Part shown: positions 1,595 through 15,213 of the stretch, in pieces | Numbering within the stretch: the stretch's first letter is position 1 | How the letters are laid out: each line of letters begins with the position of its first letter | DNA from: Planctomycetota bacterium | Lineage (GTDB): Bacteria > Planctomycetota > UBA1135 > UBA2386 | Assembly: GCA_014192625.1 (NCBI GenBank) | Contig: BJHM01000001.1 | Span: 187,725 to 251,724 of the forward strand | Direction of reading: 5' to 3' | DNA length: 64,000 nt | Position numbers and translations under genes: made by a program | The notes under the pieces: generated by a model | What the model saw: only the letters and a program-made list of their open reading frames with translations | Database searches by the model: none | Told to the model about the DNA's origin: nothing

Positions 1595-2512
1595 ATGAAG
1601 CAGAACGAGAAGCTCCTGGTGTATGCAGTAACCGGGTTTTTGGTGGTCATTCTGATGCTCGCGGTCGTGCTTGGTGGCGGTGGCCGCGATGGTGCGCGGC
1701 AGCCCGAGAGTGCGCGCGAGATGGTCATAGTCGCAGCGCCGAGCCTCGAAGAGGTGCTCAACAGCGCGAAGATCGGGCTTGGCAAGGTGCCGGATCAGCC
1801 GGTTGCCTTGTTGCTGCCGATCGAGCAGCCACTCGCAGCGCCGGTGGTTATTCAGCCACCAACCTCTGCGTCGTTAGTTACGGAACGACTTGGCCTCAGT
1901 CGACGCGAGAACGGTTTTCGCATCGTTCGAGTGCAAACCAAGGACACGTTCGGTGGTTTGCTCCAGAAGTGGTGCGGCAAGCCGGACGCATTCATGGAAA
2001 GCGCACAGTGCCTCAACGAAGAACTCGATGTGACGCGGTTGCGCGCCGGCAGCGAGATCACGCTGCCCTTGGTCGAGGATGATGTGCTGCTTGCCGCCTA
2101 TGAGGCGCGAATGCCAAGGCCTTTGAGTCCCGTTGGCGGTATCGCAGTCACTCCAGCAGGCAGTCCAGCAGGCAGTCCAGCAGGCAACGCTGCTCTTGGG
2201 GGAGTGCCCCCAGTAAAAGTTGTGCCCAGCAAGCAACCCCTGCAGCCGAGTGCAATCGCTGCGAACGCGAACAACCGCGCTGGGGTGCCAATGGATGCGT
2301 CCATTGTGCGCTCAGGCGACCAGCGCAAGTACACGATCAAGTCTGGTGATTCCTACTGGAAGATCGCGGAGCGCGAAGTCGGCAAGAAGGGCGCCGCCAA
2401 GTTCATTGAGCAGATCCACAAGCTCAACCCGGACCTTGATTCGGACAACCTGCACGAAGGTGTGCAGATTCACTTGCCACCGGCCACCGCTAAAACAGCG
2501 GCGCAAAACTGA
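1595..2512 (+). CDS. membrane-anchored LysM domain protein
   Basis: The track ORF starts at TTG 1580. ATG 1595 is preferred because GGAGGG lies 5 nt upstream. There is an N-terminal TM helix (LLVYAVTGFLVVILMLAVVLGG) and a C-terminal LysM motif (YTIKSGDSYWKIAE...LNPDLDSDNLHEGVQIHLP). A second, degenerate LysM-like segment lies mid-protein. Confidence 0.8.
   Translation: MKQNEKLLVYAVTGFLVVILMLAVVLGGGGRDGARQPESAREMVIVAAPSLEEVLNSAKIGLGKVPDQPVALLLPIEQPLAAPVVIQPPTSASLVTERLGLSRRENGFRIVRVQTKDTFGGLLQKWCGKPDAFMESAQCLNEELDVTRLRAGSEITLPLVEDDVLLAAYEARMPRPLSPVGGIAVTPAGSPAGSPAGNAALGGVPPVKVVPSKQPLQPSAIAANANNRAGVPMDASIVRSGDQRKYTIKSGDSYWKIAEREVGKKGAAKFIEQIHKLNPDLDSDNLHEGVQIHLPPATAKTAAQN
2153..2188 (+). repeat. 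in-frame 12-bp coding tandem repeat (ccagcaggcagt, 3 copies; encodes PAGS-PAGS-PAGN)
   Basis: Read directly from the sequence, inside the LysM protein linker. Confidence 0.85.
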
Positions 2513-2522
2513 GCTAGTCCCT

Positions 2523-2756
2523 GCGCGCGTTTGGCGCATCGCCCGCGCGCATCGCATCGCATCGCCCGCGGGCAACGCATCGCCCGCGCGCATCGCATCG
2601 CATCGCCCGCGCGCATTGCCCCCGCGCGCATCGCATCGCCCGCGCGCATCGCCCGCGCGCATTGCCCGCGCGCATTGCATCGCCCGCGCGCAACGCATCG
2701 CCCGCGCGCATTGCCCGCGCGCATTGCATCGCCCGCGCGCATCGCATCGCCCGCCC
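2523..2756. repeat. nested GC-rich tandem repeat, units GCGCAT(C/T)G(CATCG)nCCCGC
   Basis: About 14 variable-length units (13, 18 or 23 bp) lie between two convergent genes (stops at 2512 and 2791). All six frames are open but give only Arg/Ala/Cys low-complexity translations. Confidence 0.9.
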
Positions 2757-2790
2757 GAACTCTGCTCTGCAAGGCGCGCGCTGCAGTCGG

Positions 2791-4158
2791 CTACTTGAGG
2801 CCGTACTTCTCAAGCTTCTTGTAGAGATTGCTGCGTTGCAGGTCGATGCGCTCGGCGGTGCGTTTGATGTTGCCGCCGTTTTCGAGCAGCTTGCGCCGGA
2901 TAAACTCTTTTTCGGTCGCAAAGCCGAAGTCTTCCAACTTCTCGAACGCAAACCAATCAGCGGCCCCGCCTGGCAGTGCGGCTGGCACCGGGGTTGATGC
3001 GCCTTGCATGTCGGTGGGGCCGAGTTCTGTGCCATCCGCGAGGATGGCGGCGCCTTCGATCACATTTTTCAGCTGGCGAACATTGCCGGGCCATCGTTGT
3101 TGGCGTAGCCAGTCGAGCGCGCCGCGCGTCAGTTTGCGCTTGCCGATGCTGTTGCGGTGGATCGCCTGTTGCAGGCAGTGCTTTGCAATGAGCTCAATGT
3201 CTTCCAGCCGGTCGCGCAGTGGCGGCAGGTGGATGCGCACCACGTGGAGCCGGTAGTAGAGGTCTTCGCGAAACTCTTTCTTTGCGACCATGGTCAGCAG
3301 ATCCTGATTGGTCGCTGCCAAAACGCGCACGTCGATGGGGATCTCTTTGGTCGAGCCGACGCGCAACACCACGCGCTCTTGCAAAGCGCGCAGCAGCTTG
3401 CCCTGCATGGGCAGCGGCATGTCGCCGACTTCGTCGAGAAAGAGCGTGCCGCCGTGCGCGAGCTCGAAGTGGCCTAGCCGTGCTTGTGTGGCCCCGGTGA
3501 ACGCGCCCTTCTCGTGGCCGAACAGTTCGCTTTCCACTAGATCGGCCGGGATCGCGGCACAATTGACCGCAACAAATGGCCCCGCGCGGCGGCGGCTCTG
3601 CGCGTGCACTTGTCGCGCGACCAGTTCTTTGCCGGTGCCGTTCTCACCAGTGATCAGCACCTGCGCATCGGTTGGCGCGACCTTTTGAATCAGCGCCCGC
3701 ACCGCAATCATCAACGGACTTTCGCCGTGCAGTTCGAACTCGCGCAGCAACTCCAGCTTTAGTTGTTGGTTCTCGGCAGCAAGCGCCGCGCTCTGCAGCG
3801 CATTTTTTATCGAAACCAAGACCCGGTCGGTGCCGAACGGTTTTTGCAGGAAGTCGTAGGCACCCCGTTTGACCGCGAGCACTGCGGTTTCGATGTCGCC
3901 GTGGCCGCTGATCATCACGACTGGGAGGCTGGGGCGCAGTTCCTTCATCCGGCTCAAGACCTCAAGGCCGTCGAGGCCGGGCAACTTCACATCGAGCAAC
4001 ACCGCAGTGACTTCGGGCGCGCGCACTGCCGCTAGGGCGGCCTCTCCGTCGCCAGCCTCGACGGTGGCAAATCCTTCATAACCAAGGGCGAAGGCCAGCT
4101 CCTCACGCACCGCCCGCTGGTCATCGACAATCAGGACCTTGGCGCCAGGCTCGATCAT
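2791..4158 (-). CDS. sigma-54-dependent response regulator (NtrC family: receiver + AAA+ + Fis-type HTH)
   Basis: 455 aa. Receiver domain (VLIVDDQ...[11 protein letters not shown]...KP), Walker [15 protein letters not shown] loop and C-terminal HTH ([27 protein letters not shown]). No adjacent histidine kinase. Confidence 0.9.
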
Positions 4159-4561: not shown

Positions 4562-6673
4562 ATGGCCAGCTCGCTCGCAAAAACTTTTTTGGCATCTGTC
4601 GTCGCCGCCATCGTGGCCGGTTCAGCAATGGCGCAGGATCCATTTCAAGACGGCGTGAAGTTGCTCCGTCTCGGCAAAAAGGATGAAGCACTCGTTGCGT
4701 TCCAAGGGATCCTGAAATCGGATCCGTCCAACGCGGAAGCGATGCGGCTCTACTCGTCCATTGGTCAGGACGAGTGGTACATGCTGCTGAGTGAGCAGGG
4801 TGAGATCCAGAAGATCGCAGCATCGATCCTGGAGCGCGCCAAGCTCGAACGGAAGCAGCAGTCACGCGATGCCTCGGCGATCGATGCCTTGGTCGAGATC
4901 GTCTGCGCCAAGGACGGCAGCTACAGCGATCGCCGCGACGCGGTGATCAAGCTAGTTGCCGATCACGGTGAGTTTGCGGTGCCTGCGTTTGTCGCACGCA
5001 TGGCAAATGCGGATGACGAGAGTGGTCAGATCCAAGCGATCGCGGCGCTGGTCCAAGTCGGCCCGCGCGCAGTGATGCCGCTCATCGAGGCGCTGAAGAG
5101 CACCAGTGGGCTGCTGCGCCTGAATGCCGCCGCCGCCTTGACGCACATCAACGATGAGCGTTCGGTCCCGGCCATGGCGCGTTTAGCGCAGGTCGACGAT
5201 CAGGAAAACGTCAAGGCAGTCGCCCGCCGCTTCTTGGATGGCCGCAAAGAGAAGGGCAAGGCAGTTACCTTGCTCCTCGCCCAGTCGCGTGCCTACCTGA
5301 AGTCTGGCGTGATGCCGGGCGCATATAGCGACGTGGTATGGTCGCTGAAGAACGACAAGCTTGAGGCCACGGTTGTCCCAGCCTTGATCTACGCAGCGGA
5401 GCTGAGCAAGTCGGCCGCCAATGACGCGGTGCAGGTCGATCCCGGGAGCGAGGACGCGCGCTCGGTGCTGGCCCAGGCCAACCTGGCAGAGGCCAACCTG
5501 ATCGAAACCTCAATCGCCCAGGGCGATGCGACGGCCAAGGCGCTTGAGCCGATGGCTGCTGAGTTCAAGATGGCGGCGCTGGCGACGGGGCCTGCGATCC
5601 TGCGCAAGGCGCTGGAAGATGGTGTCAAGTCTGGGATGCCCAATGTCGCGGTCGCTGCGATCGACGCTCTGGCAATGGTCGAGGAGCGTGGCGAACTCGC
5701 CACCAGCACACTGAAGTCGGCGCTCGGCAGTGACGACAAGCGCATTCGCTATGCCGCCGCAGTGGCGCTCGCCAAGGCTTCGGGCGGTGTGAATGTTCCC
5801 GACAGCGACAAAGTCGTCAATGTCCTGGCCGCGGCCGTCATCGAAGAATCGGTGCGCATGATCCAGCTGATCGGTGCCGGTGGTGACTTCACAACCGCGA
5901 GCAAGGAAGCCGCGGCCCAACGTGGTTCTTCGGTGTGGAGCGATGCCAATGCCACCAGCGGTATGCGGCAACTGCTCGACAATCCGAACGTCGACATTGT
6001 GGTCATTAACGAGATTTTGGATGGTGGCCTGCCGGAAGACATCATCGGCAACATCAAGAAGGACCCGCGCATGGCGAGCACGAAGATCGTGATCGTTGCG
6101 AAGGACACGGAAAAGGCGCAGGCCCGTTTTGGCGAGACCATTCACGGTGTCATCAAGGCGCCGCTGACGAAGGAAACCCTGAACGAAGCGATCAGCACGG
6201 CGCTCGCGGGCGTTGCCGCTGAACCGCAGAACGTCCGCGCTGAGAGCTACGCCAAGAGTGCCAGCGAGTCGTTGCTGACTCTCGCCGCTGGCAAGAGCAA
6301 CATCAAAAACGCGCTGGTGAGCCTCGCCGGCCAGCTCAACCGTGGGGACTCGATCGCGGTCCCAGCGGCCAAGGCCCTTGGCCTCAGCGGTGGCGAACCG
6401 CAGCTCGATGCTTTGCTCGTGGCATTGAGTGGCAGTGGCAGTGTTGACCTGAAGGTTGCTGCAGCGGGCGCGCTAGGCCAGATCCTAGGTCGCGCGAAGA
6501 CCTGCCCGAAGCCTGTCGCCGAAGGTTTGATGGCGGCGCTTAACAGCGACGCTGACGTCAAAGTTCGCTCGGCCGCGGCCGCCGCGCTCGGCAAAGCCAA
6601 AGTTGATCCTGCCGAAAAGGCAAAGCTGCTCGACTCGATGAAGAAGATCGGCGTGGCCGCTGCGCAGGGTTGA
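4562..6673 (+). CDS. secreted HEAT-repeat protein (N-terminal TPR-like segment)
   Basis: 703 aa. Signal peptide MASSLAKTFLASVVAAIVAGSAMAQDP. Repeated HEAT/PBS-lyase-like units (QIQAIAALVQVGPRAVMPLIEAL, LRLNAAAALTHINDERSVPAM, DKRIRYAAAVALAKA, DVKVRSAAAAALGKA). Confidence 0.75.
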   Translation: MASSLAKTFLASVVAAIVAGSAMAQDPFQDGVKLLRLGKKDEALVAFQGILKSDPSNAEAMRLYSSIGQDEWYMLLSEQGEIQKIAASILERAKLERKQQSRDASAIDALVEIVCAKDGSYSDRRDAVIKLVADHGEFAVPAFVARMANADDESGQIQAIAALVQVGPRAVMPLIEALKSTSGLLRLNAAAALTHINDERSVPAMARLAQVDDQENVKAVARRFLDGRKEKGKAVTLLLAQSRAYLKSGVMPGAYSDVVWSLKNDKLEATVVPALIYAAELSKSAANDAVQVDPGSEDARSVLAQANLAEANLIETSIAQGDATAKALEPMAAEFKMAALATGPAILRKALEDGVKSGMPNVAVAAIDALAMVEERGELATSTLKSALGSDDKRIRYAAAVALAKASGGVNVPDSDKVVNVLAAAVIEESVRMIQLIGAGGDFTTASKEAAAQRGSSVWSDANATSGMRQLLDNPNVDIVVINEILDGGLPEDIIGNIKKDPRMASTKIVIVAKDTEKAQARFGETIHGVIKAPLTKETLNEAISTALAGVAAEPQNVRAESYAKSASESLLTLAAGKSNIKNALVSLAGQLNRGDSIAVPAAKALGLSGGEPQLDALLVALSGSGSVDLKVAAAGALGQILGRAKTCPKPVAEGLMAALNSDADVKVRSAAAAALGKAKVDPAEKAKLLDSMKKIGVAAAQG

Positions 6674-6740
6674 TCAGCGATCGGGTTGATCAGCGACCGG
6701 GTTGATCAGCGATCGGGTTGATCAGCGATCGGGTTGATCG
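6668..6740. repeat. 16-bp tandem repeat GGTTGATCAGCGATCG, ~4.5 copies
   Basis: Read directly. Each unit carries two 6-bp palindromes (TGATCA, CGATCG). The first unit contains the TGA stop (6671-6673) of the HEAT protein gene. Confidence 0.95.
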
Positions 6741-6755
6741 CCGTCGCATGGAAGT

Positions 6756-6785
6756 CGCGGGGCCTGCTCGGGCCCCGCGGTTTTG
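6756..6785 (+). terminator. Rho-independent terminator
   Basis: A 9-bp GC stem CGCGGGGCC/GGCCCCGCG (6756-6764 and 6771-6779) with a 6-nt loop, followed by GTTTTG. It lies downstream of the HEAT protein gene. Confidence 0.7.
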
Positions 6786-7081
6786 TACGGCGGGAGGATT
6801 GTCCAGCGGGCTTTGTTTTGGCGCGGGACGATTTTTGTCGCCTAGTAGCGGGTCGCCGTGCTTTCGCAGCACCGCTGGTTTTTTTGCGCCGTAGTGCGGG
6901 CGGTAGATGGCAAGGCCGGTTGGCGGTTTTTTGGGAAGAACAGACTTCTGTCGGCAGTTTTCATCCTTGGTATCCGCAGAACGACCGCAAGCTGCGCAAG
7001 GATCCTTTGCCTGCAAGTGTTTCCGATTCGAAGGCTGGCCTCCGCGGCCTTCGCTAGCTAAGTTGCCGCGCCCAACTTTGT

Positions 7082-7156
7082 GCCGGTGTAGCTCAGCGGT
7101 AGAGCAACGCTTTCGTAAAGCGTAGGTCGTGGGTCCGATTCCCACCACCGGCTCCA
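7082..7156 (+). tRNA. tRNA-Thr (anticodon CGU)
   Basis: Cloverleaf folded by hand. Acceptor GCCGGTG/CACCGGC, D arm GCTC..GAGC, anticodon stem ACGCT/AGCGT with loop TTCGTAA, T arm GTGGG-TCCGATT-CCCAC, discriminator T, encoded CCA. Confidence 0.95.
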
Positions 7157-7189
7157 CTTTTGGGCGTTAGACAACGCCGCTTTCGGTCT

Positions 7190-7735
7190 ATGACCAACCG
7201 ACTTTACTCGCTGTTGTTTGTGCCGTTCCTGTTCGCGGCCTGCAACACATCGCCGCCTACCGCGTGGCTTCGTTATGAACCACAGGACCTCACCGGCTGG
7301 CAGTCTGTCGGTGACGGAATGGTCACCACTACGATGCTCGGTGCGCGCGTCGACGTTGACTTGAAGAAGCGCGACACGCGGATTGAACTCGCCATTGAGA
7401 ACGAAACCGGTGGCGATCTTCGGGTGCGCGTTGGTCCGGAGGCCTCGCAGGCGCCAACGGCTGCGATTGGCGAACTGCGTCGCCGGCGAATTGACCAGAC
7501 TCGCGCCGAGGACGTGCGAGACTTCGTGCCGTATGTATCGATGCAGTCCGAGGTGTTGACCACTGGCTTTAGCGGGACCTTCTTCCTTGATTGCCCACTT
7601 GGGCGCGAGCCGACGATTGGTCAGCAGATCCAGCTAGTGCTCGAAGTCCGCAACGCTAAAAACGGGTTTGAGCGTCGCCTGCTATCGCTGGTCGCAACCA
7701 ACGCTGGCACGCTTGGCGATGCGCCGCGTCGCTAG
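7190..7735 (+). CDS. hypothetical lipoprotein
   Basis: The track ORF starts at TTG 7160. The ATG at 7190 gives MTNRLYSLLFVPFLFAAC (lipobox). 181 aa, no recognisable domain. Confidence 0.6.
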   Translation: MTNRLYSLLFVPFLFAACNTSPPTAWLRYEPQDLTGWQSVGDGMVTTTMLGARVDVDLKKRDTRIELAIENETGGDLRVRVGPEASQAPTAAIGELRRRRIDQTRAEDVRDFVPYVSMQSEVLTTGFSGTFFLDCPLGREPTIGQQIQLVLEVRNAKNGFERRLLSLVATNAGTLGDAPRR

Positions 7736-7770
7736 CGTAAGAAGTCATTGAGCTAGCCTGTATCTGGTGA

Positions 7771-8252
7771 GCACCGCGCACACCGCGCACACCGCGCACA
7801 CCGCGCACACCGCTGCACACCGCGCACACCGCTGCACCGCGCATACCGCTGCACCGCGCATACCGCTGCACCGCGCACACCGCGCACACCGCGCACACCG
7901 CGCACACCGCGCACACCGCGCACACCGCAGCACCGCTTTTTGGTTCGCTCTTGGTTGCAAGAACGGAACGGCGTGTGCGGGCGGGTCTGGGGTTCTGAAG
8001 AGGTGGTTTTTGACGGCAAAGTTGTGCGCTCCGCTGCACCGCGCACACCGCGCATACCGCTGCACCGCGCATACCGCGCATACCGCGCACACCGCGCACA
8101 CCGCGCACACCGCGCACACCGCGCACACCGCTGCACACCGCGCACACCGCAGCACCGCTTTTTGGTTCGCTCTTGGTTGCAAGAACGGAACGGCGTGTGC
8201 GGGCGGGTCTGGGGTTCTGAAGAGGTGGTTTTTGACGGCAAAGTTGTGCGCT
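7771..8252. repeat. higher-order repeat: [9-bp GCGCACACC-type array][104-bp block] x2
   Basis: Array A is 7771-7926 (about 17 units) and array B is 8031-8148 (about 13 units). The 104-bp blocks 7927-8030 and 8149-8252 are identical base for base, with a 222-bp period. The element lies between convergent genes. Confidence 0.95.
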
Positions 8253-8291
8253 CGCGTAGTGACAACGCAAACGCTGCGCTGCAGCGCGTCA

Positions 8292-8591
8292 TTAGACCTT
8301 GCGCCGTTTTGCCTTGCTACGCGCTCGGTAATCGAGCCATGCCTGCCGCCACGCATCGTGTTTGCGATTGAGTCGCTGATACCAGCGGTAGCGCGTGAGG
8401 CGGCGGTGGATCTGGCCCTTGATCGGCAGATCGATCATGGCGAGCCCGCCAATCATCAGCAGGATGCCTTGCACGAACGGCAGGAACAGCCCTGCGATGC
8501 CGGCCAGCAGCAGGAGTAAGCCCGCCGCATTGCGCAATACGCGGCGGGTTCTGTTGCGGGGTGGCGGCTGTGTAGGTGACGGATCGGCCAT
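8292..8591 (-). CDS. small two-TM membrane protein (PGPGW/YbaN-like architecture)
   Basis: ORF 8292..8678 trimmed to ATG 8591 (MADPSPTQPPP...) to avoid overlap with the divergent cls. Hydrophobic core LLLLLAGIAGLFLPFVQGILLMIGGLAMI followed by a basic tail. The start is uncertain. Confidence 0.5.
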   Translation of the reverse strand: MADPSPTQPPPRNRTRRVLRNAAGLLLLLAGIAGLFLPFVQGILLMIGGLAMIDLPIKGQIHRRLTRYRWYQRLNRKHDAWRQAWLDYRARSKAKRRKV

Positions 8592-8602
8592 CGACAGGCA
8601 GT

Positions 8603-10114
8603 ATGATTGCACGCTTCGGTCCGCACCATCAAAGCATGCTCGCCGTTTTACAACTAGCCTCAGAGTCCGCGACGCCATGGCACTGGGTCGTGGTTGCCTT
8701 CACATTGCTGGGCGAAGTGCTCGCGTTGATTTTTATCGTGCGTGTTTTGGAGCGTGGCGGCGCACCGGCAACGACATTGATGTGGGTCGTAGTGATCTTG
8801 CTCGCGCCGTGGTTTGGCATCGGGCTCTACTACTTGTTTCCGCGCCGACTGCAGCTGCGCAGGCTCAAGCGAATCGCGCAGCAGCAGCGTAGATGGCGCG
8901 GCGGGACGCGTGGCTCGCGCACGACGGAGCTGCTGTCGGTGCGCGAAGCCGAAGCCCAACAGGAAGGATCCCTGCATCGTCTTTTGCGCGGTCTCGTGCC
9001 AGATAGCGTGAGTTTTGGCAACGCGGTCCGGTGGCTCCCTTCTGGCGAAGACTTTTTTGCGGCTGCGCGTTTGGCAATGGCGCGAGCGCAGCATTTCGTC
9101 CACATAGAGATCTACATTTTTCGACCTGATCCGACGGGCTTGGCATTCCTTGCGCTGCTCGAGTCGGTGGCGCGCCGTGGGGTTGCGGTGCGATTGCTCT
9201 ATGACTCGTTGGGCAGCTTCAGTCTCAAAGCGCGGCATCTCGCTGCGCTGCGTAAAGCTGGCGGACGCGCCGAGCCGTGCTTGCCGTTGCTGTGGAAGCG
9301 GCGGCCGTTCACCGTCAACCTGCGCAATCACCGCAAGCAGATCATCGTTGATGGCGACGTCGTGCTCCTTGGTGGCCGCAATATTGCTGATGAATACGCA
9401 ACGGACCGCCTTGGCCAAAAACATGCTTGGTTTGACGCGATGGTGCAGATCCAGGGCCCAGCAGTAGCAGACCTGCACCATGTGTTTCTCGAAGATTGGT
9501 TCAATGCGACAGACGAAGACCTGCAAGACCCAAGGTTCTTGGCCGGGGCCGATCGCAAAGGCAACGAGTGCGTCGGCGCCGCGCGCAGTGGGCCAGACGG
9601 AGTCACCAAGGTGCTCTGGTTCTCGGTGTTTCAAGTGATCAACGATGCGCGCTATAGCCTCGAAATCAGCTCGCCTTATTTAGTCCCGCCGCCATCGATG
9701 CTGATTGCTTTGGTGGTGGCGGCATCGCGCGGCGTTCGGGTCCGGATTTTCACCAACGGTCGGGCCACCGAGGCTGTTGTGTTGCATCAGGCGCAGCGCA
9801 GTTACTACCGCGAATTGGTCAGTGCTGGGGTCGAGATCTATGAGACCATCGACGACTACAACCACGCCAAAGTATTGGTTGCAGACAATCGCACGGTGAT
9901 GGTTGGGAGTGCCAACTTTGACATGCGCAGTGCGCATCTCAACTTCGAGCTTGCGGTAGTGCTGCCCGATTCGCCTTCGTTTGCGCGCGACGTGCTGGCA
10001 ACGCTGGATAGCCGCGCATTAGCGTCGCGTCGGATCGAACTGGGGCAGTTGCGCAACTCAAGACTGCAGCGCATCATCGACGGCATTTGTCGGCTGCTGT
10101 CACCAATCCTCTGA
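8603..10114 (+). CDS. cls: cardiolipin synthase (two PLD/HKD domains)
   Basis: Two N-terminal TM helices and two HKD motifs (HRKQIIVDGD..GGRN and HAKVLVADNRTVMVGSANFDMRS). ATG 8603 is preferred (AGG 5 nt upstream). Alternative starts are GTG 8576 and ATG 8636. Confidence 0.9.
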   Translation: MIARFGPHHQSMLAVLQLASESATPWHWVVVAFTLLGEVLALIFIVRVLERGGAPATTLMWVVVILLAPWFGIGLYYLFPRRLQLRRLKRIAQQQRRWRGGTRGSRTTELLSVREAEAQQEGSLHRLLRGLVPDSVSFGNAVRWLPSGEDFFAAARLAMARAQHFVHIEIYIFRPDPTGLAFLALLESVARRGVAVRLLYDSLGSFSLKARHLAALRKAGGRAEPCLPLLWKRRPFTVNLRNHRKQIIVDGDVVLLGGRNIADEYATDRLGQKHAWFDAMVQIQGPAVADLHHVFLEDWFNATDEDLQDPRFLAGADRKGNECVGAARSGPDGVTKVLWFSVFQVINDARYSLEISSPYLVPPPSMLIALVVAASRGVRVRIFTNGRATEAVVLHQAQRSYYRELVSAGVEIYETIDDYNHAKVLVADNRTVMVGSANFDMRSAHLNFELAVVLPDSPSFARDVLATLDSRALASRRIELGQLRNSRLQRIIDGICRLLSPIL

Positions 10115-14848: not shown

Positions 14849-15147
14849 GCGCGTGGGAGCTTAACATCGGTTGACGAGCGCCGAAGTTACTGTGGTAGCG
14901 CAGGGCTTTTGGTTGGCGATTAAGGTTGCAGAATAAATACGGTGCTCTGCAACAGCGAGCGCGTAGCTTACGGCCTCTGCAACATCGGAATGTGGCGCCG
15001 CAGTCGACTCTTTGTTGGGGGGGCAATTCGCGTCGAGCACGAAGTGCCTCAGCAGGAGAAAAGTTTTCCCAGACAGAGACCTTTTTCCCTGCTTTAACCG
15101 CGGAAGATTGTCCCTATGGGATGCTTGAAGTTCCATAAGATATTCAC

Positions 15148-15213
15148 CAGCACGGCCTTCACAGCACGGCCTTCACAGCACGGCCTCCACAGCACGGCCT
15201 TCACAGCACGGCC
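15148..15213. repeat. 14-bp tandem repeat CAGCACGGCCTTCA, ~4.7 copies
   Basis: Read directly. One unit carries a T->C variant. The array ends 13 nt upstream of the candidate -35 element at 15226. Confidence 0.95.

Follow-up and report, generated by a model that had tools for sequence, protein, structure and literature searches.

A probable hypervariable minisatellite between convergent genes of an uncultured freshwater planctomycete

Introduction

What kind of element is formed by a short tandem array and a 104-bp block that follow each other twice between two convergent genes? The question is raised by a stretch of 64,000 nucleotides of planctomycete DNA, here called the window, for which the first-pass annotation knew of no described element with this layout and offered a structured RNA locus, a recombination or replication-slippage hotspot and a protein-binding array as possible identities. 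The HEAT-repeat protein encoded next to the locus was identical to GDY00808.1 (LBMAG49_01370, Planctomycetota bacterium). The LBMAG series consists of metagenome-assembled genomes from Lake Biwa, obtained from MiSeq 2 × 300 reads with metaSPAdes (bioRxiv 10.1101/655167); a literature search under the MAG accession or the name LBMAG49 returned no matches.

Organisation of the locus

The order array, block, array, block reported in the first-pass annotation was recovered in the sequence, with a 222-bp period spanning 7808–8253 (Tandem Repeats Finder). The same program placed 9-bp arrays at 7772–7933 (18.1 copies) and 8037–8155 (13.1 copies). Both arrays had been described as runs of 9-mers; they were instead found to be mosaics, in which ACCGCGCAY 9-mers (ACCGCGCAC, written N, and ACCGCGCAT, written n) are interspersed with ACCGCWGC 8-mers (ACCGCTGC, written t, and ACCGCAGC, written a) and with the 10-mer ACCGCTGCAC (two 10-mers in total). 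With this notation the features of the region are:

7082–7156: tRNA-Thr, upstream of the 181-aa gene
7190–7735, + strand: left flank gene, 181-aa hypothetical protein with a lipoprotein-like N-terminus; stop 36 nt before the array
7772–7926, no strand: array 1, unit string NNNN[t+AC]NtntntNNNNNNa
7927–8030, no strand: block copy 1, 104 bp of non-repetitive spacer DNA; the extra copy, present in the window only
8031–8032: putative duplication junction from the block end into the array interior, ...GTTGTGCGCTC|CGCTGCACC..., read from the sequence
8032–8148, no strand: array 2, unit string (t)NntnnNNNNN[t+AC]Na
8149–8252: block copy 2, in the ancestral position, running into the right flank as in all other strains
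8248–8274, − strand: predicted hairpin (RNA fold), 10 bp with a 7-nt loop, GCGUUUGCGU / ACGCGAGCGC
8292–8591, − strand: right flank gene, 99-aa small membrane protein, convergent with the 181-aa gene

The two blocks (7927–8030 and 8149–8252) were identical at 104/104 bases, as first reported, and the exact match at offset 222 extended to 121 bp (7911–8031 = 8133–8253). A recent duplication of the blocks, as had been suggested, fits this exact 121-bp identity. Arrays 1 and 2 are not copies of one another, the identity being confined to the last 16 nt of each array together with the block. Within the 64-kb window, an 18-mer of two units gave 15 matches against 0.04 expected from shuffles, and a 40-mer taken from the block gave exactly 2 matches with 0 expected in shuffles. 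The array is made of head-to-tail copies with periods of 9 and 17 (Tandem Repeats Finder), and its units of 8–10 bp abut without spacers, in agreement with the earlier statement that the locus is not CRISPR-like.

The two flanking genes were called identically in public contigs. No Pfam family was found for the 181-aa protein; its homologues in relatives (177–193 aa) share its end point. The exact 99-aa protein was present on 36 blocks of public contigs, and several Planctomycetota MAGs list it under the name 'hypothetical protein' (Planctomycetota bacterium). Starts of this small membrane protein (8292–8678, − strand) vary among MAGs, giving 81, 99 or 106 aa, and the longest ORF for it in the window encodes 128 aa; its true start is uncertain. 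The hairpin at 8248–8274 (− strand) starts 17 nt past the stop of the 99-aa gene and is followed by a weak U-tract; only its last 5 nt lie within the block, the remainder belonging to the right flank. Its predicted fold may represent the terminator stem of the 99-aa gene. Stop-free ORFs of 200–250 aa cross the array in the window, and in one public assembly a 175-aa gene was called over it.

Array length in other strains

Look-up of the exact proteins recovered about 30 conspecific public contigs, 98.4–99.4% identical to the window. The complete spacer was crossed by twelve other contigs (given as L008–L014, L071 and L072–L076), and every contig that crosses it showed a single array followed by a single block. 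In these strains the array is a strict alternation of 9-mers and 8-mers, which gives a 17-bp unit, CACCGCGCAYACCGCWG (CACCGCGCAY + ACCGCWG). In the window lineage, the 9-mer half has expanded independently of the 8-mer half.

The number of units ranged from 2 (L014) to 16 (L009) in complete spacers and exceeded 20 in L015, a contig that starts within the array; these copy numbers come from assemblies, in which arrays longer than the assembly k-mer may be partly mis-assembled, while the shortest alleles fit within one k-mer and are hence safe from this error. Spacer lengths were 209, 226, 362, 379, 379, 396, 396 and 447 bp, that is, 209 + 17n with n = 0, 1, 9, 10, 10, 11, 11 and 14. Copy number thus changes among strains in whole-unit steps, and the flanks are conserved apart from single SNPs. 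With steps of 17 bp, no reading frame could be kept across the array. Alleles of equal length can differ in sequence (L008 vs L071, L011 vs L012), and the unit maps form minisatellite-variant-repeat patterns that differ between alleles. The 226-bp allele, built of degenerate units, had the same sequence in six assemblies; such stability is to be expected of an interrupted array. The array ended 13 of the contigs (L001–L007, L015–L017 and L077–L079). Array starts also differed among Lake Biwa reassemblies, and in one of them (L001) the array opens with at least 7 N units vs 4 in the window.

The suggestion of a replication-slippage or recombination hotspot is strongly supported by this range of 2 to more than 20 units, in exact 17-bp steps, among near-identical strains. 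The block was invariant in all strains; this is uninformative, because only about 1 difference is expected per 104 bp at roughly 1% divergence.

Relatives and origin of the block

Among homologues of the 181-aa protein, identity drops from 99% directly to 68%. In relatives at 51–61% protein identity, the genes stand in the same order (HEAT / 177 aa / small membrane protein / PLD), with a spacer of 51–68 bp that contains neither array nor block. Two other loci, L065 (68% protein identity; 2433–3179) and L070 (42%; 4680–5462), have an extra gene of 248 aa and 260 aa, respectively, at the site of array and block. It encodes a DUF4097 'toastrack' protein with HNGxI repeats, and it was likewise absent from the relatives at 51–61%.

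Low-stringency blastn and nhmmer searches detected no homologue of the block in the loci of the relatives. Neither block nor unit had a further locus within the 64-kb window, and the block was unmatched in plasmid, phage and viral contig collections. A search of 185,579 species genomes for the array pattern returned 47 single chance matches in G+C-rich unrelated genomes; no array was among them, and none came from the species. Array and block have no counterpart in relatives and are thus young DNA, specific to the species. No terminal inverted repeats were detected, the best inverted repeats reaching at most 14 nt at 79%; with one locus in the window and no inverted termini, the features of dispersed repeats and mobile elements (REP/BIME, MITE, IS) are lacking. 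The block had been put forward as part of a distinct repeated element. That view was not supported: in every other strain the block is single-copy spacer DNA between the array and the 99-aa gene.

Two similar sequences were encountered elsewhere. The 68-bp spacer of L066 (4167–4234; the same in L067) contains GTCGACCGCGC twice, followed by the hairpin GTCGACCGCGCC-GAAG-GCGGCGGTCGAC, and shares an ACCGCGC core with the repeat unit of the window; from its sequence this core could be the seed of the array, or a coincidence. On a 200-kb viral contig (L083, IMGVR_UViG_3300034121_001273), a similar 9-bp repeat with the variants CACCGCGCA, CACCGCGGA and CACCACGCG lies directly after an ATG at 3437–3660. 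In frame it would give a Pro-Arg-Thr tripeptide repeat, and the 9-mer seems to have arisen there independently, in coding sequence.

In our judgement the locus is, with high probability, a hypervariable VNTR/minisatellite in the 3′-to-3′ spacer of an uncultured freshwater planctomycete (LBMAG49 type), to which a strain-specific tandem duplication, possibly an artefact of assembly, has been added. Its arrays would grow, shrink and be reshuffled by slipped-strand mispairing in replication or by unequal recombination. As judged from the alleles, the array would have no function that depends on its length, since alleles of 2 and of 3 units persist in nature. The first-pass annotation had set out what would point to a neutral local duplication: a block found nowhere else and lacking in relatives, and array lengths that are fixed. 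In the sequences searched the block behaved in this way, but the array lengths were far from fixed.

Is the doubled array and block real?

The doubled array and block was found in the window only and was absent from all other assemblies of the locus. A SNP at 8279, otherwise specific to the window, was present in three contigs of the same lineage (L077, L078 and L079), in each of which an array, one block and the right flank follow directly on one another. The tail of array 1 (NNNa) is found in L077 and L078, both of them from Lake Biwa samples, and the tail of array 2 (N[t+AC]Na) lies beside the single block of L079.

These observations leave a substantial possibility that the doubling is an assembly artefact, in which two single-block alleles were placed in tandem by metaSPAdes from 2 × 300 bp reads; the VNTR would then be real and the higher-order repeat would not. 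In favour of an artefact, the duplication occurs in none of roughly 30 other contigs, both array tails were seen in the same lineage, each with one block and the right flank, and the source MAG set was assembled from short reads. The longer N run at the array start of L001 points the same way. Furthermore, L078 and L079 (Logan, k = 31) should break at the block end were the junction present at comparable coverage; they are unbroken there, which indicates that the block-to-array junction is not abundant in the L078 and L079 samples. JGI metagenome contigs gave 0 matches to the junction and 0 to the block core, this collection evidently being without the locus.

Against an artefact stands the junction itself. 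The overlap at GTTGTGCGCTC|CGCTGCACC is about 1–5 nt, far under any de Bruijn k, so that k-mers spanning it must come from reads: an overlap this short is not one that a de Bruijn graph would join in error. In addition, 300-bp reads are able to span either array plus anchors. We therefore lean towards the duplication being a real allele rather than a product of short-read assembly.

A real duplication would have arisen as a single, recent tandem event of about 222 bp via a non-homologous junction at 8031|8032, where microhomology is about 1 nt. After it, slippage would have kept altering the arrays, and the blocks would have remained identical. Recombination between the 121-bp identical stretches would restore the single-block form. 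If real, the duplicated allele would be rare or transient.

Functional alternatives

As RNA, the whole spacer was on either strand less stable than its dinucleotide-shuffled versions (z +4.16 and +2.51), and 100/100 shuffles folded at least as well. For the arrays, too, neither RNA nor DNA folding revealed excess stability on either strand. The block alone gave z +1.5 and −0.8 as RNA and +0.5 and −0.05 as DNA. For 8149–8291 (− strand), a z of −1.6 was obtained, which is owed to the terminator-like hairpin at 8248–8274. A consensus scan of the spacer (7736–8291) for promoters and intrinsic terminators found none and did not report this hairpin. Rfam scans (permissive, 6500–9000, E ≤ 5; gathering threshold, whole window) returned only two tRNAs, none of them in the spacer.

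Rut sites are C-rich, G-poor and unstructured stretches of RNA. The spacer could accordingly be imagined as a two-way zone of Rho-dependent termination, with array length tuning convergent read-through: the + transcript of the 181-aa gene would meet the C-rich, G-poor array (54% C and 22% G on the + strand over the 155 nt of array 1), and the − transcript of the 99-aa gene would meet the complement of the block, which has the opposite strand bias (38% C and 19% G on the − strand). The weak structure of the spacer RNA and the want of an intrinsic-terminator consensus are consistent with this reading, which we nevertheless hold to be improbable. Alleles of 2–3 units (39–56 nt) are widespread, relatives manage with spacers of just 51–68 bp, and the mean C-over-G skew in the 100 nt downstream of window genes was 0.003 (rough gene model), which is no general excess of C. 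A broader form of the idea regards intergenic arrays as a maintained planctomycete architecture, with array and block complement serving here as a length-tunable two-way zone of Rho-dependent termination or insulation. We give it very little credence; if it were true, slippage and block duplication would amount to a heritable, reversible tuning of read-through.

A role of the array in protein binding or as non-B DNA (Z-DNA, for instance) is highly improbable. Each CGCGCACAC 9-mer is a perfect purine-pyrimidine alternation and such 9-base runs recur through the 9-mer stretches, and the tandem arrangement resembles iteron-like site arrays. The alternation is, however, interrupted every 9 bp, and further by the 8-mer half in other strains. 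Moreover, neither the number nor the type of units is constrained, no other occurrence of the motif was found in the window or in other genomes, and the 3′–3′ location is away from promoters.

A structured RNA, in which the array would pair with complementary motifs of the block, can hardly be upheld. The complementarity noted at first is real in its short cores, GTGTGCG and GTGCGC of the block matching CGCACAC and GCGCAC of the array, but it is limited to cores of 6–8 nt; the long duplexes that had been envisaged were not found, the best arms being 14 nt at 79%. The folding energies speak against this reading on both strands of the spacer and for the block (z −0.8 to +4.2 overall), no Rfam family matched the spacer even at E ≤ 5, array length is unconstrained, and covariation is impossible, since there is no homologue in the relatives recovered.

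An origin of the block in a lost gene or mobile element, as the 248-aa and 260-aa genes of L065 and L070 between the same two flanking genes might suggest, is scarcely credible, given that tblastn with these DUF4097 proteins against the spacer returned nothing better than E = 5 and that the block has no terminal inverted repeats, no second locus in the window and no match among plasmids, phages and viral contigs.

The hypervariable VNTR thus remains our reading of the locus. Its practical consequences are that it breaks contigs (13 of about 30 public contigs end there), that its array is a source of spurious gene calls such as the 175-aa call and the ORFs of 200–250 aa, and that it would be a very discriminating strain marker, with nearly each assembly having its own allele.

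Other arrays in the window

Alignments between strains break exactly at tandem arrays. The arrays at 2534–2754, 6667–6739 and 15143–15213, each with its own unit, are polymorphic in copy number too, and the locus is thus not special within its genome.

The array at 2534–2754 is a compound one on GCGCATCGCCCGC, with periods of 13, 18, 31 and 49, and sits between convergent genes for a sigma-54 response regulator and a LysM-like protein (contig gene calls). The anchored segment measures 271 bp in the window vs 67, 126, 139 and 160 bp elsewhere, and it is thus another VNTR. A 16-mer array (GGGTTGATCAGCGAYC) lies at 6667–6739, and the HEAT-repeat gene terminates at a TGA within its first unit; the copy number is 4.6 in the window, as against 5.6 or 7.6 in other strains. 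The array at 15143–15213, in an apparently divergent intergenic region, consists of 5 copies of a 14-mer (TTCACAGCACGGCC), and in most other strains the unit is a 15-mer (TTCACCAGCACGGCC), repeated 2 or 4 times. The overall range is 2–5 copies, and the window lineage has a differently sized unit, as at the main locus. A 12-mer array (GCAGGCAGTCCA) lies at 2144–2186; the version in L010 is 24 bp longer and contains other unit variants.

Comparison with known repeat systems

The layout, for which no described element had been known, resolves into a VNTR plus a local tandem duplication, and intergenic variation of this type is described for Planctomycetota of the same lake in the accessible text of Okazaki et al. 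2022 (mSystems, PMC9426551). There, structural variants are disproportionately many in Lake Biwa Planctomycetota; their deletions in noncoding DNA frequently correspond to tandem repeats between genes, and the authors ascribe them to polymerase slippage. The present locus shares with these variants the phylum, the lake and the nature of the change, namely intergenic tandem-repeat indels between co-occurring genotypes, and as far as that text goes both very probably concern the same kind of population. It reports the pattern in aggregate (Fig. S8b), with single loci uncharacterised; the locus, its 9 + 8 = 17-bp unit and the doubled block are not described in it. The intergenic VNTR is thus known as a kind, and the individual locus, its 17-bp unit and the doubled block are a new example. 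It provides a base-level worked example for the published excess of slippage-prone intergenic repeats in Planctomycetota, and by itself raises no new question.

The likeness to CRISPR arrays is superficial and extends to short direct repeats in a non-coding stretch. CRISPR repeats measure 23–55 bp and are separated by unique spacers, whereas the units here are 9–17 bp long, abut and have no unique spacers; no cas genes were found in the flanks examined.

In contingency loci of Neisseria, Haemophilus and Campylobacter, repeats in promoters or reading frames switch genes on and off. The mechanism would be the same here, with slipped-strand mispairing and high-frequency, reversible changes in length; the array differs in lying downstream of both convergent genes, and no switch is apparent.

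Bacterial VNTR loci serve for MLVA typing, as with MIRU-VNTR in Mycobacterium tuberculosis and the VNTRs of Yersinia pestis and Bacillus anthracis; bacterial VNTRs and minisatellites have reportedly been reviewed by Zhou, Aertsen and Michiels in 2014, a paper that Okazaki et al. cite. MIRUs form a dispersed family, and the unit of the present locus is not a member of one. With the MLVA loci it shares a head-to-tail array, unique conserved flanks, changes by whole units and internal variant-repeat patterns. It differs from them in its short, compound unit (9 + 8 bp), in its uncultured host and in the adjacent non-repeat segment, which is duplicated in one assembly.
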